DNA of 63,850 nt from Pachysolen tannophilus NRRL Y-2460 (lineage: Eukaryota): NCBI GenBank assembly GCA_001661245.1, contig KV454018.1, forward strand, positions 183,944 to 247,793, in the 5' to 3' direction. A model generated the notes under the pieces. The model ran no database searches. It saw nothing but the letters and a program-made list of their open reading frames with translations, and was not told the origin of the DNA. Shown here piece by piece: positions 8,174-49,442 of the stretch. Each line of letters starts with the position of its first letter. The first letter of the stretch is position 1. The translations under genes and the position numbers were made by a program.

Positions 8174-9511
8174 AAAAAAAAAANAAAAAAAGAATTCACA
8201 AAAATAAAACATATTTACTAGCTTCAGCTGTAAAATACTGTTTGTTTTTTTTTTTTTGCAAATCTAGGAGCGAGCATAAAGATAAAATTTCTGAACATAA
8301 TCATAAAAGGAAACAGAAAGAAAGGAAAAATCAAACAAACAAAAAGAAAAAAAAAAAATAAAATTAAAATAAAAATAAAAAAAAAATTAGCATAGTGGTA
8401 AGAGTATGGATGTATAACTGAGTAAATGAATTACTCGATTTAACTTTTTAAACTGTTATTTTGTTGTTGTTTTTTTTCTTTTTTTTTGTTATTTTTTTTT
8501 TTGTTCTTTCATTGTATGAGTAAATAGCATATATATAGTACAATAAGAAGAATATACCAATCTTACATATCACGCGTACCCAAGTATCTAGTTTCATGTT
8601 TCACTTTTATTGGTAGTGTAACTCAAGAATAATATTATCACAACTATAGAATAATAAGTCATTACCGTTGCCAAGTCTTCTTACCTGCCTCATTACGTAG
8701 CTAGCTTACTTAGCCTACTATTCTAGTCTTAATTACCCTACCTAGATGCTATTGTTTTAATTTCGCGCAAATTTTTGTTACAATAACTAATGAAAAAAAA
8801 ATATGCATGCATATGCAAGAAGTGGATTAAATATACAACAGAATTAGGTGGTGAAGGAGGAGAAACAAAGAAAAAAGTATGTAAGAATTTACGCAGAAGA
8901 GGTTGGTAGAACCCGCCGGCACTGTGAGAGACAATTTTCCCATTGCGGTTCAAAGAATGATTAAATTGTACACAGGCGATGATGATGATACCGTTCTTAG
9001 CCCTGTAAGTAATGATGAGAGAGTTAAGAGATCAAATAAATGACGCGTACATCAGTTTTAACTTAGCTTAGCTTATGGAACTCAAACTCAAGATTAGGGG
9101 CACTACTAATAAACAGTACTAATACGGTAAGCAGTGGGTACTTAATCTAGAAATTTTAATTTTACCGAAACTTTGTACAATTCAAAATCTTTTTTACCTT
9201 GAAAAAAAAAAAAAAAATATTGGTACTATTGTTGATACTATGAAGAGTTGAATAAAGGGAAATCAAGTACCCTCCACAATGAAAACTACCTGTTTTTTTG
9301 TTTGTAGACAGGGATGCGCTAGAATATATTGAGCAAACGGAAGGAATTCCATCTTTTTTTTCTACAGTAGGCAGGTATCCATTTCTGGAAAATTTTTTAC
9401 TTTTTTTTTTTTTTGCAGCATCTGCAGCAATCTAATCTGAGATTTCATTGACCTAAATTCATCTTCATGTTAATTTTTTAAAAATTTTAAAAGCCTTCTT
9501 TTTGAGATAAT

Positions 9512-9549
<38 letters not shown>

Positions 9550-9676
9550 ATTCCGTTTTATTTAATAATTTCAAACTTTAACATTTTCACTAGTTAAGCG
9601 TAATAATTTAAAATTCATTTTGTCTTTTAAAATTTTGTGCTTATTAAGCTTACAGTTTTAAAATAATTTTTCAAAG

Positions 9677-10825
9677 ATGTCGGAAAAGAAAGAAGATCCT
9701 ATCAATTATACTGAGATTCCAGTTAGACCATCAAATAATCACAACAATGGTCGCTCTTTAAGTGCTAAAAAGCAGAGACTACTCAAGTTTCTGGGAGCAG
9801 GTGCTTTAATCTGTTTAATCTTTATTGGGTTGAGAAATAGTGACTCGTTTAACGATTTTAAAATCATTCCACATGGTGGTGAGCACGGACAACTGCACCA
9901 TGGTAGCTTTAACAAGGATTTTGCAAATTCCGTTGTTCCACCACAGAAAGGTGGCGATTCCATGATACATGAAGAACCAAAGTTCAAGAATGAGCGTCCA
10001 CCACCCGCTGATTTTGAAAAGGGTAAAGCACACAAGGATGGAAAGCCTGGTTCAAAAGGTGAATCTAAAGATTCAAAATCTGACTCGAAACCTGTTTCCA
10101 AAGCTGACCCAAAAGCTGACCCAAAAGCTGAATTAAAAGCTGAATTAAAAGCTGAATTAAAAGCTGACTCTAAAAATGACCCAAAAGTTGACTCTAAAAA
10201 TGACCCAAAAGTTGACTCAAAAGCTGACCCAAAAGCTGACTCAAAAAAAGCTGATTCTAAAAATGAAGAAAAGGCTGATTTTAAAGTCGACTCTAAGGCT
10301 GATTCAAAAGCTGATTCAAAACATTCAAAGAGTGACCCAAAAGCTGATTCAAAACACTCAAAGAGTGGCTCAAAAGCTGATATGAAGTCTGATAAAGATT
10401 CAAAGAAAAAGGGATCGGTTGACCAAAATGAGAAGTCAGACGACAAGAAAAAACTGGAGGGCAAAGAAGTTGACTCTAAAAAAGAGTCCTTTGATAAAGA
10501 TGTCAAGCATGATTCCTACAAAGGTAAAGATAAAGAATATAAGAAAGATGATAAGCAATCCAAAGGAAAAGGTTCCAAAGGTGATGAAAAATTAAAGACA
10601 AACGCTCCTTATAAAAAAATTGATCAATCTGAAAAGAAAAAAGGTGATGAAAAATTATCTGAATCTGTTTCTGGAGAAAATGAAAAGTCAAAACCAGTTG
10701 AATTTGACAAGAAACTTGCTGAACAAAAAGGTTATTATGTCAAGACAAATAACGAAAAAGTTGATGGAAAGCCGGAATATTCCATCGCTGAAGGTAAGAA
10801 GCCAAAAGGTTTTAAGTATCATTGA
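9677..10825 (+). CDS. Unknown single-pass membrane protein with a Lys/Asp/Ser-rich repetitive domain
   Basis: 382-aa ORF with one hydrophobic segment (FLGAGALICLIFIGL) after basic residues, then KADP/KAEL/KNDP/KVDS/KADS tetrapeptide repeats. Confidence 0.75.
   Translation: MSEKKEDPINYTEIPVRPSNNHNNGRSLSAKKQRLLKFLGAGALICLIFIGLRNSDSFNDFKIIPHGGEHGQLHHGSFNKDFANSVVPPQKGGDSMIHEEPKFKNERPPPADFEKGKAHKDGKPGSKGESKDSKSDSKPVSKADPKADPKAELKAELKAELKADSKNDPKVDSKNDPKVDSKADPKADSKKADSKNEEKADFKVDSKADSKADSKHSKSDPKADSKHSKSGSKADMKSDKDSKKKGSVDQNEKSDDKKKLEGKEVDSKKESFDKDVKHDSYKGKDKEYKKDDKQSKGKGSKGDEKLKTNAPYKKIDQSEKKKGDEKLSESVSGENEKSKPVEFDKKLAEQKGYYVKTNNEKVDGKPEYSIAEGKKPKGFKYH
10100..10380 (+). repeat. Coding 12-bp minisatellite (aaagctgaccca / aaagctgaatta / aaagttgactct variants)
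   Basis: Direct 12-bp units visible in the sequence, some nested in 24-bp and 33-bp higher-order duplications. Confidence 0.8.
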
Positions 10826-16050: not shown

Positions 16051-16122
16051 GGGGCGAGCTGGGAATTGAACCCAGGGCCTCTCACACCCAAAGCGAGAAT
16101 CATACCACTAGACCACACGCCC
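16051..16122 (-). tRNA. tRNA-Pro (anticodon TGG), intronless, 72 nt
   Basis: Reverse complement GGGCGTGTGGTCTAGTGGTATGATTCTCGCTTTGGGTGTGAGAGGCCCTGGGTTCAATTCCCAGCTCGCCCC folds as a cloverleaf, is nearly identical to mature yeast tRNA-Pro, and has a poly-T terminator downstream. Confidence 0.97.
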
Positions 16123-21822: not shown

Positions 21823-22198
21823 NNNNNNNNNNNNNNNNNNNNNNNNNNNNNNNNNNNNNNNNNNNNNNNNNNNNNNNNNNNNNNNNNNNNNNNNNNNNNN
21901 NNNNNNNNNNNNNNNNNNNNNNNNNNNNNNNNNNNNNNNNNNNNNNNNNNNNNNNNNNNNNNNNNNNNNNNNNNNNNNNNNNNNNNNNNNNNNNNNNNNN
22001 NNNNNNNNNNNNNNNNNNNNNNNNNNNNNNNNNNNNNNNNNNNNNNNNNNNNNNNNNNNNNNNNNNNNNNNNNNNNNNNNNNNNNNNNNNNNNNNNNNNN
22101 NNNNNNNNNNNNNNNNNNNNNNNNNNNNNNNNNNNNNNNNNNNNNNNNNNNNNNNNNNNNNNNNNNNNNNNNNNNNNNNNNNNNNNNNNNNNNNNNNN
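21823..22198. other. Assembly gap flanked by a duplicated ~230-bp sequence
   Basis: N run; ~21593-21822 recurs at ~22215-22447 and differs only in homopolymer lengths. Confidence 0.95.
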
Positions 22199-24205: not shown

Positions 24206-24761
24206 AGAAAAAAATAAAAAAAAATATTTAAAAAAAATTTCAATATAAAAATTATAATATATTATTAAAAACTAATATACATTTAATATAATATAAATTT
24301 AAGTAAAATTAAAAAAAGCGATAGTCTTTCTTATCTGTGAATTCACATGATTTAACGAAAAGTAAACAAGAAAAAAAAAAAAAAAAACATCAACAACAAA
24401 AAAAAAAAAAAATTAGAATTTTTCAATAAGTCTTGTTCAAAAAAAAAAAAAGAAAAAAAAAAAAAATATTGTAAACAAATTTAATAAAAAAAAAAAAATA
24501 AAATTACAAAATTAAAAAATAAAAAATAAAAAATAGAAAAAAAATAAAAAAAAAATAGAGAGTTGAGTGTTAATAATAATAATAATAAAAAAAAAAGGAA
24601 AAATAAAGAAGTAAAAGTACATAAAAAAGAAAAAAAAAAAAAAATAAAGAGGAAAATAAAAAGCCATTTACTACTAATTATTACACCAATTCGAATCTCA
24701 TTGACACACAATTCATCAATAATACTTTTCTCCTTATCAATCAATCAGATTTTCATTCTTA

Positions 24762-28607: not shown

Positions 28608-29029
28608 TTTTTTTCACCACCACCAAATAAATGTATAATATATATAAAAAACGAAAAAAAAAAAAAAAAAATAGCAACAGCAAGATAATTTGTTCTATTC
28701 TAACCTCTTAACTATTCATCACCTATCAGGTTTATAACATCCAATCTCTTCAACACCAATAAAAGAAAAATAAAACTCATATCTTCTTTCCATTTTATTC
28801 ATCGGTCAAAAACACGTAACTAAAATCCAAAACAGCAGACATAAATTCTGACACAGTAGTGTGATCCAGTACAAATGAGGTAAAGTAAAGTAATAAGAGT
28901 TGTTTTTATAAGGGAAAAGCATTTAAATGATAGTTTTATAAAGTGTGTGTGTATATCAAATTGTAAGGAATTTGTATTGATGATTGGGTGTTTAGTTTAG
29001 AAGGATTTGTTTGTTGTTGAGAGAAGAGA

Positions 29030-30349
29030 ATGCCAGAGATGTCACTGTCACCATTGATTAGTCTGTATGTGAGACTTGAGGAAGATTTTTATAAATTGAC
29101 GAAATGTAAATTGAATTCAAAAGGTTTATCATCATTAATGATTAAACAATTGATTTTACAAAGTTATTCACCAAAGATTTCAGTTCTTTCAACACCTTTA
29201 GCCAATGAATATGCTTGTAAGTTTGGGTTAAAAAATTTTTTGGAATTGTTGAATTATTTTGAAGATTCTTTATATCAACAATCTTCAATTTTAACGAATA
29301 AAGTTCATGTAAGATTTTTAAAACCTATTGATGAATTATTGAGAGATCAAGGTAAATTACAGAAATTGATAAATGATAGTAAAAGAAATATTAGTGGGCT
29401 TAATTTTAAAAATAATGTTTCTACAGAATTGTTCAACTTAAATACATTAGAAGAATCATCTATAGAATTTGCTAGACATATTCAAATTTTAAAATCATCT
29501 ACATCAACAACTTCATCAACAACATCTCAACCGGATAATAATGATAATATTCTATTGCATAACTCAGCTTATTTACATACTATAGCCAAGATTTTATCAT
29601 CATCAACAATTTCACCTTTTGAAACTTTTAACCATCCAATATTACAATTATTGGTAGTTTCTGCAGAAGATACATTAGCAGATGCCAAAAAATTGAATTC
29701 AGATTGGAAATATTTAAATTATCCAAAATGGATTGATATCGATAAGATTTTACCTCTATTTGTTATTGTTGTGGATTCTAATAGTCCTGAATCTTTACAA
29801 AGGGGTTTAAATTTACAAGAACAGTTGAAATTACAATTAAATATAAGATCAATAATTTTACCATTATTAATGCCAACAGAAGAAAATAAAATTGATGAAG
29901 AAAAAGGATATGAAATAATTCATCCGCCATTGTTAGCTTCTTTAGCACAACAAGATCCGAATTTATTAAAAAATTTAAAAATTCCTACAAGGATTAAAAA
30001 TGCAATTAAAAACCTAATAGTTGATATTATAAATAAGACTTTAGTACCTTATATGAATAGAAGAGTTAATATCTTGACAGAAGAAGTTGTTAATCCAAGG
30101 AAAAGTTTTACCGGAAGATTGTTCAATGTGGGTAAAAGATGGGGGTCAGGAGCTTCTTCTTCGTCTTCTTCTTCTTTAACTGCTACACAAGGTGGTGGAT
30201 CTCAAGGTGTTGGTTATAATGCATTAGAAAATTTTTATTATCCTAAATCTAGTGAATTTTTAATTAGACAATTAGCTGATTGGCTATTTATGTTAAAAGA
30301 TTATAAAACATCATATACAACTTATGAATTATTTATATTATATTATTAA
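29030..30349 (+). pseudogene. TRS85: TRAPPIII subunit Trs85, N-terminal 434 codons, truncated at an inversion breakpoint
   Basis: Trs85 motifs PFETFNHPI and IRQLADWLFMLKDYKTSYTTYEL. Homology ends at 30331 and is followed by the AT-rich junk tail FILYY*. Confidence 0.82.
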
Positions 30350-30700
30350 TTTATTATTTAATTAGTTATATGTTAACTTAACTGGCCCATGAATTATCTA
30401 ACATAAAATTTGTTAAAAAAAAAAAAATTTGTTCTCGCGCAAAATTTCACATTTTTCATTTTGCCTTAAAAACTGGTTAAAATTTCTATACATTTCATGA
30501 GACAGATAACCGAAAAGGAATACGTAGAGAACGGGGCGTGAAAAACTGCGGGAAGGGTTGATATTGATGCTGCTTTTAATGTAGGTTGGTAGATAGATAG
30601 GTAGGTAGGTACATGATGGTCTACAATTTCATGTTTACTTTTAACTAAAATTACAACTAGATATATATATGAATATATATATATATAATTTTTATTTTTA

Positions 30701-31342
30701 TTATATCTTAATTTCTTCAAATTGTCGTATTGCCAATTTAAACCACAATTCCGATTTTCTATGTCTAGTAAAGCCTAAAATCTCATAATTTTCCTTTTCA
30801 TAGTTTTTCTTTAAAAAATTTGGAACTTGTTGATCTTGTTCTTCTGTTGTCATGGTTGTCATGATTTCAGTTCGTTGTTTGATAGTGGCTGGTGATAAAT
30901 AATAGTAATTATCATAAACGTAGCTGATTCTTTCCATCAAGTAAGACTTGTTGAGGTTATCTATCAAATTGTTATCAATTACTTTGTTAAACAATGTGAC
31001 TGCTTCTTCACAATAGAAACTATTGTTTAAATTACTATGATTATAGAATTGATTTGATTCGGTTAAAGTTATGAATAATTCACCAATGATTATTAAAGAT
31101 CTTAATGAAAAAGTCTTTAAATAACATCTTGAAGTGTAAGAATAATGCAAAGAATCAACCATTGGAACAATCAAATCGTCTATGATCTTCGATGTGATAC
31201 CATTGTTGTTATTAGAATTAGCAGTTACCGTAGTGGTATTATTAAATTTATTACTTGCTCCAATTAATAAACTGATAATCATAAATTCTTGTAATGATGC
31301 CAAATAATTCCATGATTTTTCATTAAGAAAATCTTTTTTCAA
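30701..31342 (-). pseudogene. TRS85: Trs85 C-terminal 213 codons, inverted relative to the N-terminal part
   Basis: Starts LKKDFLNEKSWNYLASLQE, the direct continuation of the Trs85 motif ...YELLKKDF.N.K.W.YLAS.QE. Ends with G.TR.RKS.LW; it has no natural ATG start. Confidence 0.82.
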
Positions 31343-31419
31343 GAGAAGTTTAACTGAGGTCAATCAGGTTATAAGATTTCTTTATATTGATTATTTAGTT
31401 ATAAGGAAAGGATAAAAAA

Positions 31420-33294
31420 ATGAAATATTCGTTGATTTCTGTTATTTGTTGTTTCTATTATTTATCAACGCTTACTGCAGGGTTTTATTTGCCAGGTGTT
31501 GCTCCGTCAACTTATGGTAAGAATGATAATGTTCCATTGTTAGTTAATCATATTACTCCATCATCTAAGTATGAGAATACTGATTCGAAGACGTTTGTTT
31601 ATTCTTATGATTATTATTTTCCAAGGTTTCATTTTTGCCAACCTGAAGGTGGTCCAAAAAAACAGTCTGAATCTTTAGGTTCAATTATCTTTGGTGATAG
31701 AATTTTTAATTCTCCATTTCAAATTAATATGTTAGTTAATAAGACTTGTGAGAAGTTATGTACTGCTACATATTCAAAGACTGATGCCATTTTTGTTAAT
31801 AGAAACATTAGGGCTGGTTTCCAACATAATTGGTTGATTGATGGTTTACCTGTTGCTAGAGATATGTTTGATAAAAAGACTAGTACTGAGTTTTATGGTG
31901 CTGGATTCCCAATTGGTTCAGTTGATGACTCGGTTTCACATTTGAGTAACCATTATGAGTTGATTATTGAGTACCATCAAAGAGGCGAAAATGAATATAG
32001 AGTTGTTGGTGCAACTGTTAATCCATACTCAATTGAAAGAACTGAACAAGATTTCTCCTGTGATGTTGCCGATGTTAATGCTGTAAGATTGGACCAAAGT
32101 AAAGATACAGATGTGGTCTTTTCTTACTCTGTTGTATTTGTTCCTTCCTCGACAGCATGGGCAACAAGATGGGATAAATATTTGCACGTTTATGACCCAA
32201 AGATTCAATGGTTCTCCTTAGTTAATTTTTCAATTATTGTGATCTTGTTATCCTTGATTATGTCTCATATCTTACTTAAGACTTTAAGAAATGATATACA
32301 GAGGTACAATGAAGTTAACTTGGATGAAGATATAATTGATGAAATGGGCTGGAAATTGGTTCATGGTGATGTTTTCAGATCTCCAAAGAATAGAATGCTC
32401 TTGTCAGTCTTTGTTGGTTCAGGTATCCAGATTTTCTTGATGACTTTGGTCACCATATTCTTTGCGTTATTAGGTTTATTGTCACCATCAAATAGAGGTT
32501 CTTTGGGTACTGTTATGTTTTTACTCTTTGCTGTCTTTGGTTCCATCGGTTCATTTGCTTCTGCTTATTTGTACAAATTTTTCAACGGTGATAATTGGAA
32601 ATTAAATATGATCTTATCACCTCTTGTTGTTCCAGGTGCCTTATTTGTCTGCTTCGTCTTATTAAATTTCTTTTTAATCTTTGTTCATTCTTCAGGAGCT
32701 GTCCCAGTTGGAACAATGTTTGCTATAATATTTATTTGGTTCCTTGTTAATGTCCCATTATCAGTTGCCGGAAGCTTATTTGCCTACAAGAGACCTGCAA
32801 TGAAATTACCTGTTAAAGTTAACCAGATCCCAAGACAAATTCCAAAACAACCATGGTATTTGAGAACTTTACCATTAGCTTTAATTGCCGGAATTTTCCC
32901 ATTCGGTTCAATTGCCATTGAAATGTACTTTATCTATAATTCTCTTTGGTTCAACAGAATTTATTACATGTTTGGATTCTTGTTTTTCTGTTTTATCCTT
33001 ATGATTGTCACTACAGTCTTGGTTACAATATTATTGATCTATTACACCTTGTGTAATGAAAACTATAAATGGCACTGGAAGTCGTTTTTCATTGGTGGCG
33101 GTGTTGCAGTCTACATCTTCATTCATTCGATATTATTATCAAGGTTTAAATTAGGCGGATTCTCGTCATTTGTATTATACTTTGGTTATTCAAGTATTAT
33201 CAGTTTATTAGTAGGAATTGTTTGTGGTACTGTTGGATTCCTTGGATCATTACTATTCGTGCTAAGAATCTATGATGCTATCAAGATTGATTGA
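31420..33294 (+). CDS. EMP70: Transmembrane-9 (nonaspanin) protein Emp70/Tmn2
   Basis: Signal peptide then FYLPGVAP, SESLGSIIFGDRIFNSPF, WATRWDKYL, GWKLVHGDVFR, C-terminal IKID. Confidence 0.93.
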   Translation: MKYSLISVICCFYYLSTLTAGFYLPGVAPSTYGKNDNVPLLVNHITPSSKYENTDSKTFVYSYDYYFPRFHFCQPEGGPKKQSESLGSIIFGDRIFNSPFQINMLVNKTCEKLCTATYSKTDAIFVNRNIRAGFQHNWLIDGLPVARDMFDKKTSTEFYGAGFPIGSVDDSVSHLSNHYELIIEYHQRGENEYRVVGATVNPYSIERTEQDFSCDVADVNAVRLDQSKDTDVVFSYSVVFVPSSTAWATRWDKYLHVYDPKIQWFSLVNFSIIVILLSLIMSHILLKTLRNDIQRYNEVNLDEDIIDEMGWKLVHGDVFRSPKNRMLLSVFVGSGIQIFLMTLVTIFFALLGLLSPSNRGSLGTVMFLLFAVFGSIGSFASAYLYKFFNGDNWKLNMILSPLVVPGALFVCFVLLNFFLIFVHSSGAVPVGTMFAIIFIWFLVNVPLSVAGSLFAYKRPAMKLPVKVNQIPRQIPKQPWYLRTLPLALIAGIFPFGSIAIEMYFIYNSLWFNRIYYMFGFLFFCFILMIVTTVLVTILLIYYTLCNENYKWHWKSFFIGGGVAVYIFIHSILLSRFKLGGFSSFVLYFGYSSIISLLVGIVCGTVGFLGSLLFVLRIYDAIKID

Positions 33295-33981: not shown

Positions 33982-36900
33982 CTAATTTAACCATCCATAA
34001 ACAGCATCAACATTAATAAAAGTTTGATGACAATCTTCAACGACCATCCTCCATTCCGAAATCAAACTTAATAAATCTTTTGCATCACCAACCATGTTCA
34101 AATCAATATCATAATAAGCATTATTAACATTACCAGAGGTTAATCTATAACCAGTCTCGTAAACATTTCTATTAGGTAGTCTACTATATATTTTCTCCAT
34201 GACACCCTTTGTATTCACTAATTCCGAACTAATCACATTAAATTGTTCAAATAATTTTCCTGTCTCTGCTTCCATTTTTTTTAATCTTGACGTCAAGTCA
34301 TGATTATCTGTCTTATTTTGAAGATTTATTATTGATTTAATCAACGTATCCAAGAAAATTGTTAATTTGAAATAATATACCACAGTAAGTGTCGATATAG
34401 GTGACAATGCTTCTGAAAATTTTAATTTCGAATAAAATTCTAATGCATTAGAAATGGAAGATTGTAATTTTTTAGAAAGCCGTGTCAACTTTAATAAGAA
34501 ATCAAATATAAATTCTTCTTCTTCTTCTCTCTTCTTACGATACATGATAAATCTATCCCTCATAAGCCTTTCATCTTTATAATTACTAAACATTTCATTG
34601 ATAAACTCAGATAGTTCAATAACTTCTTTTAAGATGCTGACAAATTTTAAAGGTGCATCTGATAACCTGTTTGCATCATATGCGTAAACAATTGATTTTA
34701 ATTCTTCAACTGATAACATCTGAACAGCAAATGGATAATTAAATTGAGCTCTTAAATTACCAATGTCATTAAACATGAGGCTGGCTTTGAATATGCTATA
34801 ACAATTTTCATAAGTAGGGTCATTAGGTAAGAATCTCGATAAAAATTCATCAGCATTAATTTCTTTCAATTCGAAAATCGATGTAAATTTGGGTATACCA
34901 AAACTTAAGGAATGAATGCTATCCAAAATTACAATCATGAAATACAATCTTGAATATAGAACAATTGAATCATCAAAATCTAAAATTGTGTTACTTGAAA
35001 TCATTTTATTAATATTTTCAAAAACTTTGAAATCATTAAAAATTGAAACAGTTGTGCTTAAACTTAAAGAATATGGCTGTGATGACAAATTTACACAATA
35101 GCTCAATATTACCAACGTTGACAAGAAAATCGATTTGAACATTGGATCGCCAGCAATACACTGTTTCAAAACGGGGTATGATTGATATACTTTTTGAAAT
35201 AACAATCTCGTTTCGCTAATATATCCAGAAGTGGTTTTATTTGGATTATTCATTAATATTAAACTTGATTGGAAAAAATCAATTATAGAAACTTTTTCAT
35301 CAGAATTTAATAATAACGAAACCACGGACTGAATAAAATTTGATTTGTTCAATGGTAAGATTGGGAAATTATTATGATAATTTTCGTAATACGAATTGAT
35401 ATTCTGTTCCAATAAACTGAAATTTAGAGAAAGTTGCGATTGTTGTAATCCATACTGATAGAATGAAACGGTTGGGGCTTGATTCATTGTGGTATTGAAA
35501 CCGCTCAAATTGCTAACTAACATTGAAGGACTAGTTCTCATATTATTGCCATTACCATTACCATTGCCATTGCCATTATTATGTCCATTATTATGGCCAT
35601 TATTGTGACCATTACTATATCCATTTTTACTGTTATGGATGGTATCACTTTTTGCCTTTAACGACTCGTCTACATTAGTTGCACTTAATCTCAGTCTTAG
35701 GTAATCGTCATCTGAATCACTAACAATGGATGAAGTATGATTTCTTGCCAGAGTACTTTTAGCACTTCCGGTATTGTTAAAATTTGCCGGTGAGTATGAA
35801 CCACTTGCCGATGAGACCAACGATTCATTTGAATTTCTTCTCTCTGTATAGGATGAATATTCGTATGGTACTTTCCAAAAATGACTCAGAGTCGGATGTG
35901 GTTGTTGTAGTTGTAATTGTGGCAGCAGTTTATCCAAAGTAGAACCAAAGGACCCACCCAGTTGAACTTGTGTGGTTGATGGTGATCTCGATGAATTATT
36001 TATGTGGGTGGAAGGATTTGTGGTAGTCAAGATCGATGGTGCTGATGATCTTGGTGATAAACTGTTTTGTTGAAATGTGTTTGCTGAAACGGTAGAGGTA
36101 GCGGCAGCTGAGGCAACAGTAGAAGAAGTGGTGGTAGAATTCATTAACGATGATGATGAATGGTGATGATGAGGAGTGGCCATAGCCATAGTATTCGTAC
36201 TCGAATTTTGTAATCCGTCATTTCGCGAATTAGCCGCCGCATTGATTGGCGGTAAAACAATTGTTTCAGCGGTAGTACCTGGGACCGCGTCCGAACCCGA
36301 ACCTGCATCCGCACCCATCCCAGCACCCATCCCCGCCGTTGATGCAGCCAGAACACGGGTACCAACACTGCCGGCCCCAAGGCTGGCGGTGCCAGTAGCG
36401 GTGGAATTTCCAGGAAATGGCGGTAAACGGTGGGAGAATTGTAAATGATGGTTTTGCGAATCCAGATTTTGCAGCAGTCCCTGTTGCAGCAGCGACAGGG
36501 ACTGCGATAACGACAATGACATTGACATCGATTGTGAATGTGAATGCGAGGGTGCTAGTGCCAAGTCAGGGCCGGCCAAATCTAGAGTCAGTCTCTTACC
36601 TTGTATTGAGCCTCTCTTATTGATCTCCACTTTTTCTTCCAAATCTCTTATATAACCTTTCGAAGGTCCTCTTTTCAAAGGTACTCTTGTAAAAGTACAA
36701 ATATCATTTGTCTTTTCACAATTAGCACACGATCTCTCAACCATATTAGACCTTGGACTAAAAGTTGCATCACACCTAATCTTCTTACGTCTACATTCGT
36801 CACACGCCCGTGAAACTTTACTCCTCTTTCTTGGCGGAACATTACTCGTAGCAGCAGCAGCAGCTGATGCTGTCTCTGTTGTCGCTGCTGTTGCCTTTGG

Positions 36901-37041
36901 AGAAGCAGACATACTACTTTCTGTTGTATCTGGGTTATTTAATAAAGACATGATTGGCGTAGTTTGTGTGTGCACTTGCCCAATATTTCTTCCGCCTTGA
37001 ATGTTCCGGTCATCTGCCGACATTTTCTTGTTATACCTCAA
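33982..37041 (-). CDS. RGT1: Zn(II)2Cys6 glucose-responsive regulator Rgt1
   Basis: RKRSKVSRACDECRRKKIRCD...CANC...CTFTRVPLKRGPSKGYI plus the Rgt1-typical FWKVPY motif. Confidence 0.85.
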   Translation of the reverse strand: MRYNKKMSADDRNIQGGRNIGQVHTQTTPIMSLLNNPDTTESSMSASPKATAATTETASAAAAATSNVPPRKRSKVSRACDECRRKKIRCDATFSPRSNMVERSCANCEKTNDICTFTRVPLKRGPSKGYIRDLEEKVEINKRGSIQGKRLTLDLAGPDLALAPSHSHSQSMSMSLSLSQSLSLLQQGLLQNLDSQNHHLQFSHRLPPFPGNSTATGTASLGAGSVGTRVLAASTAGMGAGMGADAGSGSDAVPGTTAETIVLPPINAAANSRNDGLQNSSTNTMAMATPHHHHSSSSLMNSTTTSSTVASAAATSTVSANTFQQNSLSPRSSAPSILTTTNPSTHINNSSRSPSTTQVQLGGSFGSTLDKLLPQLQLQQPHPTLSHFWKVPYEYSSYTERRNSNESLVSSASGSYSPANFNNTGSAKSTLARNHTSSIVSDSDDDYLRLRLSATNVDESLKAKSDTIHNSKNGYSNGHNNGHNNGHNNGNGNGNGNGNNMRTSPSMLVSNLSGFNTTMNQAPTVSFYQYGLQQSQLSLNFSLLEQNINSYYENYHNNFPILPLNKSNFIQSVVSLLLNSDEKVSIIDFFQSSLILMNNPNKTTSGYISETRLLFQKVYQSYPVLKQCIAGDPMFKSIFLSTLVILSYCVNLSSQPYSLSLSTTVSIFNDFKVFENINKMISSNTILDFDDSIVLYSRLYFMIVILDSIHSLSFGIPKFTSIFELKEINADEFLSRFLPNDPTYENCYSIFKASLMFNDIGNLRAQFNYPFAVQMLSVEELKSIVYAYDANRLSDAPLKFVSILKEVIELSEFINEMFSNYKDERLMRDRFIMYRKKREEEEEFIFDFLLKLTRLSKKLQSSISNALEFYSKLKFSEALSPISTLTVVYYFKLTIFLDTLIKSIINLQNKTDNHDLTSRLKKMEAETGKLFEQFNVISSELVNTKGVMEKIYSRLPNRNVYETGYRLTSGNVNNAYYDIDLNMVGDAKDLLSLISEWRMVVEDCHQTFINVDAVYGWLN

Positions 37042-44413: not shown

Positions 44414-44645
44414 GTTTTATTTATTTTATTTTTTTTTTTTTATTTTTTTTTTTTTATTTTTTTTTTTTTATTTTTTTTTTTTTTCAAAAATGAAAGACAT
44501 TTCTGTTTTATAGAATCCAAAACATTATATTCTGTGTATTATTTATTATTGAGCTTTTCATTACATCATAGAACCAAGAAACCTATCTAGGAGGAGGAAA
44601 GTCTATTTAAAAAAAAGAAAGAAAGAAAAAACAAATTCTAAATCT

Positions 44646-49105: not shown

Positions 49106-49442
49106 TNNNNNNNNNNNNNNNNNNNNNNNNNNNNNNNNNNNNNNNNNNNNNNNNNNNNNNNNNNNNNNNNNNNNNNNNNNNNNNNNNNNNNNNNNNNNNN
49201 NNNNNNNNNNNNNNNNNNNNNNNNNNNNNNNNNNNNNNNNNNNNNNNNNNNNNNNNNNNNNNNNNNNNNNNNNNNNNNNNNNNNNNNNNNNNNNNNNNNN
49301 NNNNNNNNNNNNNNNNNNNNNNNNNNNNNNNNNNNNNNNNNNNNNNNNNNNNNNNNNNNNNNNNNNNNNNNNNNNNNNNNNNNNNNNNNNNNNNNNNNNN
49401 NNNNNNNNNNNNNNNNNNNNNNNNNNNNNNNNNNNNNNNNNT

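Follow-up and report, generated by a model that had tools for sequence, protein, structure and literature searches.

A segment of 1,007 bases in the window (63,850 nucleotides of contig KV454018.1 from Pachysolen tannophilus NRRL Y-2460) is most likely mis-oriented in the deposited draft assembly, and not a feature of the genome. In the record, the TRS85 gene is divided into two consecutive parts by a clean, reciprocal inversion of roughly 1 kb, which also reverses the spacer between TRS85 and the EMP70-family gene that follows it. The two junctions of the record are without contig support in the same organism, whereas the alternative junctions, which restore TRS85, are supported in four of four public runs whose contigs were placed on the region and by the word shares of all five runs that hold it. 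The features of the region are listed in Table 1.

Table 1. Features of the TRS85-EMP70 region, in coordinates of the window
Feature	Positions	Strand	Details
TRS85, first 434 codons	29030–30331	+	PF12739 profile positions 1–374 of 453, E = 1.6e-71
TRS85, last 213 codons (C-terminal part)	31342–30704	−	PF12739 profile positions 376–451, E = 4.1e-14
Inverted segment	30334–31340		1,007 bases; equivalent to 30332–31342 (1,011 bases), as 2 letters fit either side
Most of the native TRS85-EMP70 spacer, reversed in the window	30334–30700		Holds the poly-A run 30415–30427
77 bases immediately preceding the EMP70 ATG	31343–31419	+	Outside the inverted segment (sequence and contig joints)
EMP70/TM9SF-family gene, 624 aa, intact	31420–33294	+	PF02990 profile positions 1–510 of 517, E = 4.2e-200, 666.2 bits

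TRS85 in two pieces on opposite strands

A profile search of the open reading frames of the window shows consecutive parts of the Pfam family PF12739 (TRAPPC-Trs85) on opposite strands, first on the + strand and then on the − strand. The + strand open reading frame extends over positions 29030–30349 and encodes 439 amino acids; it scores 242.2 bits, with a gathering cut-off of 26.7 for the family. Direct reading of the sequence places its last Trs85-like residues, ...TYEL, at position 30331. Past this point the frame enters unrelated sequence and terminates in a stop codon ending at 30349. The 5′ piece comprises the N-terminal region with the GTPase-like fold and ends where the C-terminal solenoid begins, and its residues 175–433 match residues 200–457 of yeast Trs85 (PDB 7kmt_B, E = 1.1e-27).

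The − strand frame of the C-terminal piece opens with LKKDF at 31342 and has its stop codon at 30701–30703. It scores 53 bits against the same gathering cut-off of 26.7. A search of this piece alone against PDB sequences gives no match at E = 0.001, and at E = 10 one unrelated chance hit.

Together the two pieces encompass PF12739 profile positions 1–451 of 453. Judged by the profile matches, it is evidently not due to chance that successive parts of a single family are found on the two strands. The initial annotation had recognized the two frames as consecutive parts of Trs85, and this is borne out by the order of the profile positions and by the alignment, in which the pieces abut. Both halves are fully open, as had also been noted, and show no decay; the open reading frame listing and the translations agree. 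A single colinear polypeptide over the whole profile is absent in the window as given and is present after the segment is flipped back.

The 439 aa product has one member in the protein collection, on one contig, which is the window's own. No full-length Trs85 of the same species is found in that collection, which displays the window's own 439 aa form and three relatives at 31%–41% identity.

Two rejected candidates may be mentioned here. Splicing or trans-splicing was discarded as an explanation of the split gene, the two TRS85 parts being on opposite strands. The idea that a transposable element had flipped was also discarded; the segment consists of the 3′ third of TRS85 and its spacer.

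The junctions of the inverted segment

Reverse-complementing positions 30334–31340, 30333–31341 or 30332–31342 by script yields the same product, and one step further in or out yields a different one. Bases are neither lost nor gained in the flip, which is perfectly reciprocal. The inversion coordinates given by the initial annotation, together with the TYEL and LKKDF ends, are accurate to the base, as seen from the sequence, the Pfam matches and the flip-back.

The complementarity between the two junctions is limited to the 2 letters TT/AA. No flanking inverted repeat is present at the two junctions, and none of the inverted-repeat pairs listed for the window has its arms at both ends of the segment. 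This agrees with the earlier description of the junctions. Also, neither an N gap nor a repeat flanking the inverted segment is seen in the window.

These properties bear on the possibility that the inversion is real, that is, a very recent two-break end-joining event confined to the clone or isolate that was sequenced, which would otherwise be identical in its bases to its relatives. The clean reciprocal junctions and the 2-letter microhomology fit end joining, the undecayed state of both TRS85 halves fits a very recent event, and the junctions are free of gaps and repeats that could account for a mistake of the assembler. However, at least 2 letters of breakpoint ambiguity are found in 21% of random 1,007-base inversions of this region. 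Since the chance frequency is 0.21, the microhomology carries no weight, and it was rejected as a mark of mechanism. In view of the contigs described below, a real private inversion is considered unlikely.

A second possibility is that both orientations exist in one culture, either as a heterozygous inversion in a diploid or as a reversible switch that toggles TRS85 and the promoter of EMP70. The segment holds the end of a gene and a promoter region, so a flip would have a phenotype. Recombinase-driven invertible switches include the bacterial promoter flips of the Hin/Gin/Fim type and FLP on the yeast 2-micron plasmid. The similarity to these systems lies in a segment of about 1 kb with promoter-proximal DNA that appears in two orientations across data sets. 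Unlike them, the segment has no inverted repeat at its ends beyond the 2 letters, and Pfam scans of 26 open reading frame products of the window show no recombinase family. A further difference is that the two orientations never appear within one data set, the second being seen only in the assembled record. An orientation polymorphism or switch is thus very improbable.

The restored TRS85 gene

When the segment is flipped back by script, one open reading frame of 647 aa is formed, at positions 29030–30973 in restored coordinates. The uninterrupted frame of this length had been predicted in the initial annotation for the reverse complement of 30332–31342, and is reproduced here. The 647 aa sequence aligns in a single stretch to all three relatives, over residues of about 35–645, with E-values from 1.4e-152 to 8e-97. 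The identities are 45%, 37% and 32% to relatives P0002, P0003 and P0004, respectively.

In multiple alignment A1, the N-terminal and C-terminal pieces of Trs85 are in adjacent columns and no column is lost at the joint, which falls within a motif kept in all three relatives. From these alignments the restored order is taken to be the ancestral one, with no residue lost or gained, since the restored form is colinear with three of three relatives and the pieces abut exactly.

Compared with the known Trs85/TRAPPC8 proteins (PF12739; 7kmt chain B), the restored protein thus displays the same linear order, over profile positions 1–451 of 453. The gene of the record differs in being present as two pieces on opposite strands. 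The restored Trs85 is, at 647 aa, somewhat shorter than the solved yeast chain of 717 residues (7kmt_B).

Metagenome sequences were also scanned. An exact 40-base string from inside the segment gives no matches in JGI metagenome contigs, and a pattern scan for relatives based on alignment A2 yields 203 matching stretches, none of which encodes a relative.

The spacer and the EMP70-family gene

When restored, the reversed part of the spacer is situated between the TRS85 stop codon and the 77 bases that precede EMP70. The complete restored spacer is 446 bases in length and has a TATAAA motif 83 bases before the EMP70 ATG; a distance of about 80 bp had been given earlier. In the window's form, positions 30974–31419 contain neither TATAAA nor TATATA.

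Just downstream of EMP70 there is a gene for a Zn(2)-Cys(6) transcription factor of 1,013 aa, at positions 33982–37023 on the − strand. Its sequence has long low-complexity tracts, including HNNG-unit and NG repeats.

Contigs of public sequencing runs

Seven public runs are listed for positions 29800–31900. Five of these hold the stretch, and each shares 0.96 of the sampled 31-letter words. Logan contigs of four of the five holders were placed on positions 29000–32600; the fifth, X3, is represented by its word share only. Runs X1 and X2 are from sample S1 and run X4 is from sample S2 (study P1, 2010–11), and run X5 is from sample S3 (study P2, 2023). None of the public runs listed as holding the stretch is an RNA run.

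All four runs with placed contigs (3 samples, 2 studies) have positions 30334–31340 and the two flanks on opposite strands, i.e. the segment in the orientation that restores the gene. In each run, one contig spans 29000–30333 and 31341–32600 on one strand and 30334–31340 on the other. The contig joints 30333/31340 and 30334/31341 are scored as "opposite strands" in each of the runs, with 2 letters that fit both sides. The bridging contigs of X1, X2, X4 and X5 have lengths of 4,783, 9,648, 4,874 and 4,766 letters and depths of 195, 72.5, 28.1 and 123.3, respectively.

None of the four runs shows a substitution in the 3,601 bases. The sole other difference is an additional AA in the poly-A run at 30415–30427, which has 13 A in the window and 2 more A in the contigs of every run. 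This disagreement in poly-A length fits a draft-quality consensus.

No contig that bridges the window's own junctions is listed in the four runs, contigs being a form of data from which rare variants drop out. Word shares point in the same direction. The predicted share is 0.965 for the restored orientation with the additional AA, 0.992 for the window's orientation with AA, and 0.99–1.00 for the window's form. The 0.96 found in all five holders, including X3, fits the restored form, and none of the runs listed has a share near 1.00.

The initial annotation had proposed that spanning reads in the restored orientation only would mark an assembly artefact. This outcome is obtained for the contigs of all four runs, and holds at the level of contigs, not of raw reads. 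The contigs demonstrate the presence and dominance of the restored form, but do not establish the absence of the window's form.

These data weigh against a private inversion in two ways: the contigs of the four runs, which otherwise agree with the record in every base, cross both junctions in the un-inverted form only, and the word share of five of five holders is that expected for the un-inverted form, with none listed near 1.00. They also weigh against an orientation polymorphism, as one contig passes through both restored junctions in four of four runs, and both orientations at comparable depth would be expected to branch the de Bruijn graph at this place. Each data set thus displays one orientation, although in contigs a minor fraction could escape.

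One small contig of X4 requires comment, as it could be quoted in favor of a second orientation. It has 39 letters, is placed on positions 30329–30361 and has a depth of 4.56 (vs 28.1 for the bridging contig); 3 letters in 33 differ and 6 letters are unaligned. It was rejected as support for the junction of the window since it has only 5 letters to the left of the junction and does not bridge it. By the authors' own reading of its letters, it appears to fit the restored form about equally well, two of the mismatches being letters of the restored flank.

Probable mis-orientation of the segment in the draft assembly

The best explanation of these findings is an inversion-type misassembly, which would have arisen at an assembly, scaffolding or finishing step. 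In the organism, an intact TRS85 of 647 codons on the + strand would then be followed, after a spacer of 446 bases, by the EMP70-family gene; nothing would be knocked out and nothing rewired. Misassembly had been mentioned as an alternative in the initial annotation and is now the favored reading. Its main proposal, a very recent real inversion that knocks out TRAPPIII and rewires EMP70, is without support in the four restored runs and the five word shares, and the orientation switch that it also considered finds no inverted repeats, no recombinase and one orientation per data set.

Several lines of evidence favor misassembly. Runs of two studies that are otherwise identical to the record show only the restored junctions. 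The draft sequence of the window has gaps and disagrees with the reads in homopolymer length. The truncated 439 aa product is known from a single entry, that of the window's own contig. A perfectly reciprocal flip with both halves open is what a mis-oriented piece would be expected to give. In addition, a private two-break rearrangement in a relative that is identical over 3.6 kb would be expected less often than an error in a draft assembly.

Inversions, in which the two flanks of a breakpoint align to opposite strands, are among the standard classes of misassembly (PMC6022658). The case presented here has the same properties: both flanks of each breakpoint match opposite strands of independent read-derived contigs from this organism, the sequences are otherwise identical, and the record is a draft with gaps. 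It differs in that these breakpoints display no repeat, gap or mark of low coverage.

The draft state of the record is seen in two N runs, at positions 21823–22198 (376) and 49107–49441 (335), and in single Ns at 8184, 22204 and 22211. The stop-to-stop open reading frames across these two gaps include the N stretches and are probably artefacts.

There are points against a misassembly. A flanking gap or repeat, from which the mis-orientation of a small contig usually results, is not visible. Two reciprocal false junctions are needed, and these are rarely given by random chimeric reads. Contigs drop rare variants, and the record's own clone could differ from the runs. Finally, a clean two-break end joining would leave the same picture.

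A coarse Pfam look at 23 further open reading frames of the window (16 of the 23 with family hits) shows no second gene split across strands, and neighboring open reading frames on opposite strands share no Pfam family.

Consequences for annotation

As biology the finding means little, as an ordinary EMP70-family gene most likely follows an ordinary and intact TRS85 at this locus. The record, on the other hand, would mislead annotation. It would give a truncated Trs85 of 439 aa and, on the opposite strand, an open reading frame of about 193 aa (counted from the first ATG) that belongs to the C-terminal part of TRS85, and it would put the wrong promoter region before EMP70. To infer a loss of TRAPPIII or of autophagy in Pachysolen tannophilus from this record would be misleading.

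TRS85 is dispensable in S. cerevisiae, where it neighbors TMN2. With a real inversion, Trs85 would be interrupted behind residue 433, which corresponds to about residue 457 of yeast Trs85, immediately ahead of the C-terminal solenoid with its binding to the TRAPP core. The position of the break is a point in favor of a real inversion: the C-terminal 198 residues of Trs85 (501–698) suffice for binding to the TRAPP core, according to PMC8204860. The N-terminal fragment would then be unable to join the TRAPP core and would in effect represent a TRAPPIII null. Of the native DNA upstream of EMP70 only 77 bases would be kept, the rest being replaced by antisense coding DNA. This would be a null allele of a single strain and of modest interest.

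Other features of the window

The window is AT-rich, with 30% GC. Two intergenic homopolymer-rich arrays are present, at 44415–44484, where a T13-A unit occurs about 5 times, and at 24439–24662, a long A-rich array. The only tRNA found in the window is a tRNA-Pro (anticodon TGG) at 16051–16122 on the − strand.

The open reading frame at 9662–10825 has no Pfam family and probably encodes a repeat-rich, low-complexity protein. Within it, at positions 10073–10381, there is a 12-base coding tandem repeat of about 26 copies, which also shows periods of 87 and 33.
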